A stretch of 64,000 nucleotides of DNA from Paramecium tetraurelia (Eukaryota): the NCBI GenBank assembly GCA_000165425.1, contig CT868097.1:192867-256866 (forward strand), in the 5' to 3' direction. This document shows positions 40,395 through 49,700 of the stretch, one piece after another. Position numbers and translations under genes: made by a program. Each line of letters opens with the position of its first letter. Within the stretch, counting starts at the first letter, position 1. Under the pieces are notes generated by a model. It was not told the DNA's origin, did not search any database, and worked only from the letters and a program-made list of their open reading frames with translations.

Positions 40395-40480
40395 TTTAAA
40401 TATTATAAATTATCACCAATTTTAATAAGTATCAAATAATGTATGAATTTGACAAATACCTTAAAATAAATTGAAAAATT

Positions 40481-40523
40481 CAAAGATACAAAGATACAAA
40501 GGTACAAAGATACAAAGATACAA
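40481..40523. repeat. 8-bp minisatellite (caaagata)x5
   Basis: caaagata caaagata caaaggta caaagata caaagata caa. Confidence 0.9.
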
Positions 40524-40807
40524 TATAGAATTAAAAAGCTAAGATGAATCCCATAAAATGTTCATCGTTTACATTACATCAGATTTGAATTTAATAAGAT
40601 TATATTATTTGGAAATAGTAAAAATGTTTGTATGTCTCTAAACTGATTTAATATAAGTCCTAATCAATAGGAAATTTATGCCCAATTTAGATTTAATTTT
40701 GCCATATATCTTCAACACAAAAATATATGATAATTTCTGCATTGCTTTTTTAATGGCTTAAGTATCCTACATAATGGAAATAGAACATTTAAACAAAAAT
40801 AAACCAA

Positions 40808-41232
40808 GTGATTTGCAAATCATAAGCCCCCTTGTGTTTATAGGTTAGTATAACTAGCTTATATTTATTGGATGTCTTAAGAAAGTCAGGCCATTCTAAT
40901 CAAATTGAAAAAACCGCCAAATATTAGTAATCTAACTCAGATTTAAGAAATTTAACTCCACCCCTAGACATTCTTGTCACCACAACAGTCTTAATCTGAG
41001 GAGTGAACATTTCATTAAACATCAACTACACTCTCTTAGTGCAGTCTGTTAGATTAGAATACTTGATGGAAATCCCAATTCTCTTCTTAGGGCAACAGAC
41101 GATTCTCAGACCAGCATATTATGCCGACACTTTCTGTCCCAAAGGAAAGGAGGACTTTAACCCCAGGGTTTGTTTATGTAATTGCTTACATTCGTGTATA
41201 TGTGCCCCGATGACTAAGCAATTTGCAAAATC
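40808..41232 (-). ncRNA. RNase MRP RNA
   Basis: Minus strand: P1 end pairing (GAUUUUGCAAAUUG / UGAUUUGCAAAUC), P2 UUAGU/ACUAA, P3 CGGGG..CCCUG with UACAC loop and AUGUAA-GCAA-UUACAU, CR-I UAAAGUCCUC, P8 GACA-GAAAG-UGUC (GARAR loop), CR-IV UAGUUA, CR-V ACACAAGGGGGCUUA. Confidence 0.9.
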
Positions 41233-41429
41233 TTTTGTTTATTTTTATTTAAATTATTGAAAAATAATCACAACTTAATTTAGTCAAATAATGGAGATAT
41301 AATTATTTGAATGCTTTTAAAATGAATGTAATGAAAACAATTATTCTTTAAAATACGTGATTATAATATAGGTTTAAATAAAATTATTGGGGGTGATTAT
41401 ATTTATAATTTTTATCATAACAGACAAAT

Positions 41430-46700: not shown

Positions 46701-49700
46701 AACCTACTTAAGATGCTGATTAATTGTAAATTTTATTAGATTTTATGAGGAGTGATTTCCAAGTATTACAGTATATAAATTGTAATACTGTAGAACAGTT
46801 ACACCCCCCATAAGATGTAGATTGCTATATTCTTTTCAATATAGTTAACTTAGATCAATAGATTAACGAAGATTGTAGCTTCAAAGATGATATACAAGAT
46901 TGAATTCTGACTCATGGATTCTTGGTATCGAATTTCAAATTCCTTTTGATTGAAGGTCAAGTTTTTCTTCAATTCTATTTATTCATCATTATTAATATTG
47001 TTATTCAAGGCCTTATAGATTGAATCGTCCATCTAATTGTTATCTGCCAAAATAGATTTGATGAATTTCTTCCTCTATTAGATAGACAACTGCAAACTTT
47101 GCTTAGTGGTTCTCTACTTCTTTGTCTACTCAATACATTTAAAATTTTATTCATCTGTTATCACAGTATCTTGGAACATCTCCAAATTGTACAATTATAG
47201 TATAGAAGTGACTGCAAATTTAAATACAAAGGCAAATATGTAAACGAAGATTAAACTTCTAATTATATATCCAGGACTATAAAACAAATCTGAGTAAGTT
47301 ACTTTATAATCACTATAATCAGGTATAGTTAGGAATGTCACCAAAGCTACAATGAATACGCTTAAAAATAACAAACCCAAAAGTTGTTTATGTTGTTGCT
47401 AGAATATTTAGAAATACAATTATATTTTAACTATTAATTCTAGAGTAATTATAAAAGCAAATTGGGATATTGGCAAATAATTGGAATCTCCATATAAGTA
47501 TTTTGTGGCATACAAAGGAATGATCACAATTGTTGCATCAATCACTCCAACAAAGAATATTTTAATTAATGAATCCTTGTTAAACAGAGATTTGACTAAG
47601 CATCTTTAAGGTATCAACCCTTTGTAATAGACATCTGAAGTCTTGAATCGTTTATTGTGAGATATCAACTGAATCATCACTGTAAAGGTTTGACTTAATA
47701 GAAGGAGGACGTTACAACTTTAAGTTAAAAACTACCCCTAGTTGATGAGATTGATTAAGACAAATAGAATCATCTCGTAAAGCCAAAAGTAAAGAATCTG
47801 TTAGGCCAGCAAAGACGAACTTATACACTGAATTATTAGGATTGATTCTGCACATCTTAAAGAATTGACTAAATAGCAAGGTTTGGATTGAGTGTAGCAT
47901 TTCGGGTTGATGTCAATTGATATTTAACTCATCTGATAAACCCTTTGAGTGTTAGCACAACTGCCGATGTATCCAATTTACATATTGAGTTTTTTGGCAA
48001 TCTTAAATAATTTAACCTTAGAGATCTCCATACTATCATACAAGGCCAACCCTCTGCTAAACCAAACGATTATGGCAAAATGATTTAAGAGATACTCATC
48101 TTTGATTATAGTTAACAAGGCTTCACAACTCAGGAGAATGTACTTCTTTTCAAAGTCTTGTGCTTCAAATATTCTAATGTTTAATTTCACATTTACCTCT
48201 GTTACTTAATCAGATTTGAACAGGCACTCTAAATAGCGAATTTCAAGGTTCTCTCATCTCCGCAATTAAATTGATTTAAATCGTTTTCATTCTCTATGAA
48301 TTTTGCATCAAACAAAAACCTTAGAACTACGAATTGATTTTCAGCAGAAACCAACCATGTATTTAACTAAATATTGATTTTAAATACATTAGCTTAAGAG
48401 AATGCATCAATGGTCAGAAGAGCACTTTGATCTATCTTTGCATGAGTTCCTATAATCATGAGCAATTCGGCCTAGGATTCTAATTGTAAATACAACAATT
48501 CAAGCTAATCTTCGTCTGCTGTGTATGAATTCATGATGTTCATTTTGTTTAATAGGAATTACTTAGCTTCACTCTTTTTGAGTTGCTTCTTAAAATACAG
48601 AGTTGGCTATTGACCCTATTTCAACATATAATACAAGGTTGAATTAGTTTCTAACACATTGATATTCATGTTAGTGTTTTCATACATTTGAGAAGTTTCA
48701 ATTTTTACATAAAGCAGTGCACCTTCATCCTCATTGAACTCTTCTGGATCTTTTAGGAGTACTGAATAGACTCCGATTCTATTTTTTGTTTGTTTATTTT
48801 CACTCAGGATCTTATATTATTTCAATTTGCCTTATATTTCAATGATTTTGAGTTGACTTTTGAGAATTATGTCATAAATTTAACGCTCAGCTTCAATACT
48901 ACATTTAAGTTTGTATTCTAAGAGATTGCAGAACTCAATTAAAATATAATCTTATGGGTTCTTACAATATGTTTCTATTGTTTTTTTTTATTCGTTGTAT
49001 TTATTCTCAATCTCACATAACAACAAGAGTGCAACAACTTTCTCGTGATATTAATTATCGAAGTCATCAAACAGTTGAGTTATAAATTATTATTCATTCA
49101 ATTATTGCTTTTATAATTGATTAATAGACGAACTCTAGTCACTTCCACTCTTGACAACCTTTGTTCTAAATGATATGGTTTTGCCTAAGGAATTCTTTAG
49201 TTTCTTCTATTGAGATGCATCAATGGTTTTTTTTGAAAGGGAAAATTATAAGTTTGAGCTGATCCCATAATTTTATCTCTCCTCTTAATTATGAGGAGAA
49301 TAAGGATGCGAGTTAATTAATTCGCTGTAATCCTTTTTGTCCTCATCAAATATGTCATTCTCTCTGCCTGTATCTAATAGGGTCTTGTAGTAATTATCCC
49401 CCAATTATATTTGATTGTTATTCATTACTGTCACCAATTATTTATATTTGAATGTGTATTGCTTGTCATCAATATAAATAGACTGGATTTTCCTCTTCCT
49501 TTGGAAATACTATTGATTCAATTCCAAACACACCAAATTTACTTTCGAGCATTTCCAATACTTGGAGAAATTATATTAATGTTTACATTAGTTTATTACA
49601 TCATAACCGAAAAGTCTTTGATGTCATCGTATTTTGATAATTTATTCTAAGAATAGATTTCAGTCATATTCTTTACTCTATTAAATTCAATCCAAATATG

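Follow-up and report, generated by a model that had tools for sequence, protein, structure and literature searches.

The 64-kb stretch of Paramecium DNA analyzed here (hereafter, the window), which is part of contig C114 of assembly G000 and fits a reading in genetic code 6, almost certainly harbors an RNase MRP RNA gene at 40810–41232 of its minus strand, in a gap between two plus-strand protein genes. Directly downstream of the MRP RNA lies what can be identified with good confidence as a box H/ACA snoRNA, overlooked by the first-pass annotation of this DNA, and the MRP RNA is itself enclosed by an external stem (Table 1). Taken as a whole, the explanation with the RNase MRP RNA gene as its core is very probably the best one. 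The annotation of this RNA, whose presence was to be expected, is correct and well supported, and it is extended by the external stem and what is probably an H/ACA snoRNA. The RNA is essential, probably unannotated, and missed by pipelines that apply the Rfam threshold. In additional file 1 of PMC1796607, MRP RNA entries are given for Tetrahymena and Oxytricha and none for Paramecium. No report of a Paramecium MRP RNA was found in the literature searched, and an earlier listing of either RNA in published surveys is possible. None of the four flanking proteins matches a Pfam family.

Table 1. Features of the MRP RNA locus and its surroundings, in window coordinates and listed in the order of minus-strand transcription, with the antisense reading frame last.
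Feature	Position	Strand	Remarks
Conserved upstream region (promoter or precursor leader)	41255–41329	-	No canonical USE; 66/75 identical between copies vs 52/93 further upstream
External stem, 5' arm	41237–41254	-	Outside Rfam model and outside P1; 18/18 pairs with 40787–40804
RNase MRP RNA core, P1 to P1	40810–41232	-	423 nt; RF00030 match, duplicate with 412/425 identical columns, RNA-run contigs
P1, 5' strand	41221–41232	-	Pairs with 40810–40820; one bulged U
P2, 5' strand (UUAGU)	41213–41217	-	Pairs with ACUAA at 40849–40845
P3	41164–41209	-	P3a, internal loop with ACAUAUAC, P3b closed by GCAA loop
CR-I, 5' strand of P4 pseudoknot	41150–41158	-	Unchanged in duplicate; no difference listed in relatives
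P5 (UCC/GGG), directly after CR-I	41138–41151	-	8-nt loop holds local variation (1-nt deletion, C>U)
P8 with GAAAG (GARAR) pentaloop	41126–41138	-	Loop at 41134–41130
P9 hairpin	41112–41126	-	Pair probabilities 0.75–1.0
Long P10–P12 arm of S-domain	40874–41111	-	~240 nt, branched at far end; fold plus pair-by-pair variant check
Internal T6 run	40908–40913	-	Window copy only; apparently read through
CR-IV (AGUUAU)	40850–40855	-	Six nucleotides
CR-V, 3' strand of P4	40823–40831	-	No clear P19 hairpin before it
External stem, 3' arm	40787–40804	-	Contains T5 (40799–40795), where RNA contig joint ends
Linker hairpin between external stem and snoRNA	40764–40786	-	Predicted; core kept in duplicate
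Box H/ACA snoRNA	40630–40757	-	Hairpin 1 40757–40701; H box AAAUUA 40699–40694; hairpin 2 40691–40637; ACA 40635–40633 plus 3 nt
Spurious antisense 85-aa ORF	41003–41260	+	GTG start; 1-nt indels at 41143 and 41069 in duplicate shift frame between them

The identity of the gene is supported by the RNase_MRP covariance model of Rfam (RF00030) together with a set of family marks. The Infernal search that had been proposed as a check of the first-pass annotation (1401 bases against 4227 families) gave a significant, end-to-end match to this model (positions 1–266; 37.2 bits, E 8.9e-9), albeit below its gathering score of 50 bits, which is a curation threshold rather than a biological feature. Both copies of the gene score 37.2 bits, and because this is less than the cut-off, a standard threshold scan misses them; at the gathering score, the scan of the whole window returned zero RNase_MRP matches. 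The sub-threshold score is probably caused by large insertions in the S-domain, or a lengthened P10–P12 arm, to judge from the insertions in the alignment. A genome-wide search for the family, in which 24 of 182 candidates were scored, recovered at least one further locus, namely the other copy (E 1.1e-7). As a caveat, RF00030 at E ≤ 1 also matched in nine of 14 prokaryotic control genomes, in none of them over the cut-off. The locus has a folding z of -2.69, with 0 of 100 shuffles as good. Moreover, a pattern built from CR-I and P8 of the window led to 15 metagenome loci, 14 of which match the MRP model and 12 of which do so over the cut-off. As a separate observation, five loci (L009, L011, L012, L016, and L018) form a group of related MRP RNAs in which the P3 region is much lengthened.

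Element by element, the RNA can be followed from one strand of P1 to the other. Four motifs that the first-pass annotation had assigned to the minus strand all lie where it placed them: CR-I (AAAGUCCUC, 41158–41150), P8 (GACA-GAAAG-UGUC, 41138–41126), CR-IV (AGUUA, 40855–40851), and CR-V (GGGGCU, 40830–40825). Its terminal helices P1, P2, and P3 can all form, and its P4 pseudoknot is matched by complementary strands at those positions, with AAGUCC(UC) of CR-I pairing with GGGGGCUU of CR-V; the pairing is unchanged in the duplicate and hence comes without covariation. The GC-enriched island that it described is equally real, with values of 0.33–0.40 at the locus versus 0.21–0.23 in the flanks. 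P3 of the window RNA is presumably the expected Pop6/Pop7-type site. In comparison with RF00030 (human RMRP, yeast NME1), the RNA shares P1–P5, P8 with its GARAR loop, P9, a 6-nt CR-IV, and the CR-I/CR-V pseudoknot, and the genome, as is usual for this family, has a separate RNase P RNA. It differs in length (423 nt against a 266-position model), in its P10–P12 arm of ~240 nt, in its two retained duplicates, in a score below the gathering score, and in having no clear P19, a hairpin that is gapped in the RF00030 alignment and of which none is clear before CR-V. No canonical K-turn was seen by eye in P12 of the predicted fold. As far as the sources were available, P19 is described as nearly universal in MRP RNA, a P12 K-turn is reported for the MRP RNA of Tetrahymena, and a long arm of >200 nt is reported for the MRP RNAs of Pezizomycotina and Cryptosporidia.

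Functionally, P1–P5, P8, and CR-IV would build a catalytic domain around the P4 pseudoknot, on which the GAAAG loop would dock. As part of a particle with Pop1, Pop4, and further subunits, it would cleave the ITS1 of single-stranded pre-rRNA and thereby help to make 5.8S rRNA, a role suggested by what is known of the family in yeast and human. Neither 5.8S rDNA nor other rDNA of the organism's own was found in the assembly. With regard to protein partners, the genome encodes Pop1 N-terminal and Pop4 domains, both of which are common to RNase P; the best match to the profile of the MRP-specific RMP64/NEPRO (NEPRO_N) is weak (E 0.078 in the genome), and a search of the genome for the POPLD domain returned nothing. 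Since genes of this ciliate are easily silenced by RNAi, the locus makes it possible to test what MRP does in the processing of pre-rRNA in ciliates.

The locus might instead be read as RNase P RNA, either in a divergent form or as a second paralogue, in that the P1–P4 architecture is shared by the two families and both belong to the same Rfam clan. This is very improbable, as no RNase P (RF00009-type) match is listed for the locus at E ≤ 1 in the Rfam scan of 1401 bases, and the true nuclear RNase P RNA gene of this genome sits on contig C113 (L004 1501–1752, or G000:C113:427781–428032, plus strand; 67.9 bits). The available part of PMC13184271 gives three marks that are specific to MRP RNA: P5 has 3 bp and adjoins CR-I, the loop of P8 is of the GARAR type, and CR-IV is 6 nt long. 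All three are present here, as UCC/GGG (a P5 instead of a P7), GAAAG, and AGUUAU, the last of these contrasting with the 8-nt CR-IV, AGUGCAAU, of this genome's RNase P RNA. Because of these marks and the separate RNase P RNA gene, the choice of MRP over RNase P can be regarded as settled, in agreement with the first-pass annotation, which had based it on the P8 loop. The RNase P RNA gene on C113 possesses a canonical USE and a T5 run downstream, and it is represented by one copy among the matches listed.

A second copy of the locus, syntenic with the first, is located on contig C65. Over the MRP RNA, the duplicates are identical in 412 of 425 columns (96.9%), and in the C-domain in 163 of 165 (105/107 and 58/58), while the flanking coding regions are 80.9–84.9% identical and the spacers 43–56%. 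That the RNA is more conserved than the genes on either side of it is taken, from sequence comparison, as a probable sign of selection. Such conservation might be thought the result of a protein-coding ORF, either the 85-aa frame on the plus strand or another under code 6, and several ORFs of at least 50 aa do overlap the MRP region. The idea is scarcely credible: the duplicates differ by 1-nt indels at 41143, 41069, and 40923, identity in the RNA region exceeds that of real coding genes with synonymous drift not apparent, and the substitutions track RNA pairing. The 85-aa antisense ORF, with its frame shifted by the duplicate's indels, had therefore been rightly dismissed as spurious. Almost as hard to sustain is the notion of a non-functional relic or small mobile element, which would have a 34-nt inverted repeat (82% complementary) as its terminal repeats; such a repeat does surround the whole element, and the Rfam score is sub-threshold. 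Against it, the number of copies found by DNA search is at least two, both in syntenic positions and both more conserved than the flanking genes, with compensatory changes, and coverage is present in RNA runs. In the spacer at 40466–40521, an 8-nt repeat (AAAGATAC) occurs five times, an array not seen in the C65 copy.

Covariation within the RNA was judged from the duplicate and from the contig differences of the RNA runs X18 and X20, because the 15 metagenome loci yielded no recognizable ciliate relative; these relatives are few and related, and counts of two-sided changes among them are not independent. For X20, there were two variant contigs at 40877–40992, of which one (depth 11.1) was used along with an upstream contig, possibly of another organism. 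The X18 relative differs by 26 substitutions, 25 of them in the S-domain (40868–41125) and one in the P5 loop. Compensatory changes, which had been named beforehand as a check, are indeed present in the X18 and X20 contigs, and in X18 two-sided changes occur in four helices (at 41077/40906, 41065/40918, 41052/40932, and 41003/40961). One clear pair break was seen in X18, at 41076/40907, and it is compensated in one X20 contig. The helix at 41066–41058 shows two or three breaks near indels, a count that depends on indel placement in an ambiguous alignment. Overall, the variant data favor one long P10–P12 arm. This bears on two S-domain helices proposed in the first-pass annotation, both of which are complementary as claimed, but the first is disfavored by covariation and the second crosses a covarying helix. 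The first (GUCUGUUG/UAACAGAC) shows one one-sided change and excludes the helix 41056–41048/40936–40928, for which two relatives show a two-sided change. The second (CUCAGAUUAAGA/UCUUAAAUCUGAG, 40998–40989/40948–40938) is kept, with G-C turned into G-U in all three other sequences, and it crosses 41007–40999/40965–40957, which has a two-sided change. The crossing helices of the far S-domain (41007–40938, minus strand) may be alternative folds or a pseudoknot.

Six RNA runs on record hold part of the stretch, and four of these were mapped. In all four, the contigs lie within 40795–41246 and coverage is zero in both flanks. The earlier prediction of a stable minus-strand transcript of ~420 nt is consistent with this confinement of the contigs to the gene, with strand, exact length, and true ends lying beyond what such contigs reveal and with depths that are coarse. 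X15 carries alleles of both copies, and the share of the window allele is 46% of depth at 41170 and 44% at 40895, i.e., on either side of the internal T6. Because the allele keeps its share across this run, the T6 is apparently read through. No coverage of the snoRNA region, or of anything beyond 40795, was found in the four runs, which is compatible with the presence of the snoRNA or of a precursor, because contigs drop rare and short RNAs.

Among 634,800 placements tested in the window, the external stem is the sole one with 18 of 18 pairs, and four of 200,000 one-arm shuffles reach 18. In the duplicate, 17 of the 18 pairs are retained; past the T5 run, the stem continues for another 8 bp. 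One X15 contig joins 41246 to 40795 at a depth of 464, as compared with ~100,000–300,000, and these two ends are exactly two paired positions of the stem, with 40795 being the last T of T5. The joint could possibly represent the ends of a molecule, a circle, or a library artifact (fold-back or template switch across the stem), and since an artifact is possible, a 5' end at 41246 is tentative. RNase III leaves a 2-nt 3' overhang, and the joint was rejected as a signature of that enzyme since it is blunt; it was likewise rejected as an excised-IES circle, as TA occurs at one end only. In the available part of PMC3273799, box C/D snoRNA precursors of Tetrahymena are described with a stem of 5–25 bp between the flanks of the mature RNA that is proposed to direct maturation. 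The situation here is similar, except that those stems belong to C/D snoRNAs, whereas the window stem encloses an MRP RNA.

The favored account of how the two RNAs could be made, to which we nevertheless give somewhat less than even chances and which is wholly inferred, has a single precursor, not made by Pol III, from which they are released by cutting and trimming. It is suggested because there is no conserved USE, the T6 is read through, the stem continues 8 bp past T5, and a promoter for the snoRNA would have little space. Such a precursor, not terminated at T runs (and so probably a Pol II product), would start upstream of 41254, fold the 18-bp stem around the MRP RNA, and run on into the snoRNA; it would be cut in or next to the external stem and then trimmed to ~425–450 nt. 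The USE found at the U2, U6, and RNase P genes of this genome is reported for Tetrahymena and Paramecium in the available part of PMC3273799, and its presence, like genetic code 6 and the duplicated syntenic region, agrees with the assignment of the DNA to Paramecium. With a USE profile built from U2, U6, and RNase P sites, which themselves score 16.4–18.9, no conserved USE was found upstream of the MRP RNA, and the best score of 7.9 falls in non-conserved spacer. As a precedent, yeast NME1 and snR66 are reported to be occupied by Pol II. Against the one-precursor reading, the X15 joint ends exactly at T5 and is blunt, and the 12 RNase III domain matches (L035–L046) form six tandem, Dicer-like pairs, with no single-domain, Rnt1-type gene seen among them. 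A fuller scenario is doubtful, namely that the MRP RNA left Pol III control and now heads a precursor that it shares with the H/ACA snoRNA, from which it would be freed by cleavage of the 18-bp stem, possibly by a Dicer-family enzyme since no Rnt1-type gene was seen, and would partly close into a 452-nt circle at the ends of the stem (41246 to 40795).

The MRP RNA could alternatively be encoded by a stand-alone Pol III (or snRNA-type) gene, starting at 41246 or 41232 and ending with T5 at 40795. Leader and trailer would then pair as a longer P1, and the snoRNA would be a separate transcription unit. We consider this a substantial possibility, if one that falls clearly short of even. It accords well with the X15 joint, which runs from 41246 to the last T of T5, and weakly with the X18 and X20 contigs, which stop at 41232 and 41230, respectively (contigs do not mark ends). 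A CCAT is located 62 nt upstream of 41232, at a spacing like the 59–64 nt of U2 and U6, but the site is outside the ten best USE-profile scores of the region. A T5 also follows the RNase P RNA; then again, one follows U2, which is a Pol II RNA. Only tandem RNase III domains were found, which likewise speaks for a Pol III gene, but the internal T6 is read through, the window snoRNA has an internal T5 of its own, and the transcript would not include the outermost 8 bp of the stem. Published work, as far as it was available, describes MRP RNA as probably a Pol III product in most eukaryotes, and Pol III has been implicated for clustered Paramecium snoRNAs (second-hand via PMC3273799, seen in part). 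In the same partial source, however, the USE spacing of Tetrahymena H/ACA genes is 53–179 nt, and the gap between stem and snoRNA here is only 29 nt, which also leaves insufficient length for a tRNA-like spacer. The remaining probability goes to mixed cases, for instance two units each transcribed by Pol II. Since the internal T6 is present in one copy and absent from the other, the pair offers a natural test of the polymerase behind the MRP RNA. Two further observations concern upstream elements. A motif containing TCCATTAT occurs on the minus strand at 41285–41302, upstream of the MRP RNA, and at 40771–40785, in the pre-snoRNA linker; each site lies in a possible small hairpin, is kept in both copies, and is a poor match to the USE. 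Exact 9-nt USE cores occur at 48960 and 34362 (minus strand), with no RNA family at gathering score after either one and no RNA gene evident.

The downstream RNA has the layout of a box H/ACA snoRNA, with a hairpin, an ANANNA box, a second hairpin, and an ACA followed by 3 nt. It starts 52 nt 3' of the MRP RNA, and folding z values are -4.0 and -3.3 in the two copies. The stretch 40630–40758 is identical at 125 of 129 positions in the duplicate, where the first downstream difference is at 40629, right after ACA plus 3 nt. Differences within the RNA include an H-box change at an N position and, in hairpin 1, a G-U turned into G-C. No Rfam match was found for the snoRNA.

Among the known tandems, the snoRNA partners of MRP RNA in yeast and Oxytricha are of the C/D class. 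The window partner is H/ACA, in contrast with both. Otherwise the arrangement is familiar from S. cerevisiae NME1-SNR66, in which the MRP RNA gene adjoins a guide snoRNA gene, and from an Oxytricha nanochromosome that carries RNase MRP and snoZ196 in tandem. The window additionally differs from these in its gap of 52 nt with a small hairpin and in having the MRP RNA inside an 18-bp external stem. It thereby extends the recurring MRP-snoRNA tandem by an example from a ciliate in which the partner is H/ACA, and the gap and marked stem make it a good place to ask whether such tandems form one transcript. At another locus (L021 926–1298, minus strand), a compact MRP RNA is followed 28 nt on by a C/D snoRNA-like sequence (snoR116/snoR41, below the cut-off).

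The probable target of hairpin 2 of the snoRNA, as suggested by its complementarity, is the pseudouridine that corresponds to yeast 25S-2191. In eukaryotic LSU rRNA, the hairpin can form 5+8 pairs on the two sides of a U, at a distance of 14 nt from the ACA. The rRNA loci in this comparison came from other organisms and were fetched with the expected target motif; five were fetched, of which three were dropped as not rRNA. The target score of 12 was also reached by nine of 300 shuffled LSU sequences. When the U is set to yeast 2191, L028 has the expected bases at 2197, 2220, 2256, 2258, 2260, 2266, 2278, 2280, 2281, 2133, and 2142 and mismatches at 2129 and 2264, such that 11 of 13 other positions agree; this register was matched to Cm2197, Am2220, Am2256, psi2258, psi2260, and psi2266. 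For hairpin 1, no target was found in partial LSU, U2, and U6. According to sources available in part, yeast snR32 guides 25S psi2191, which equals human 28S psi3674, and the Entamoeba counterpart is ACA-Eh-LSU2268. The window snoRNA has its predicted target position in common with these two RNAs and would be a functional counterpart by position only, as sequence homology to them was not found by Rfam. Lastly, L029 (3–188) is a short piece of eukaryotic LSU rRNA in a contig of a viral collection that ends shortly before helix 69, possibly at an insertion site.
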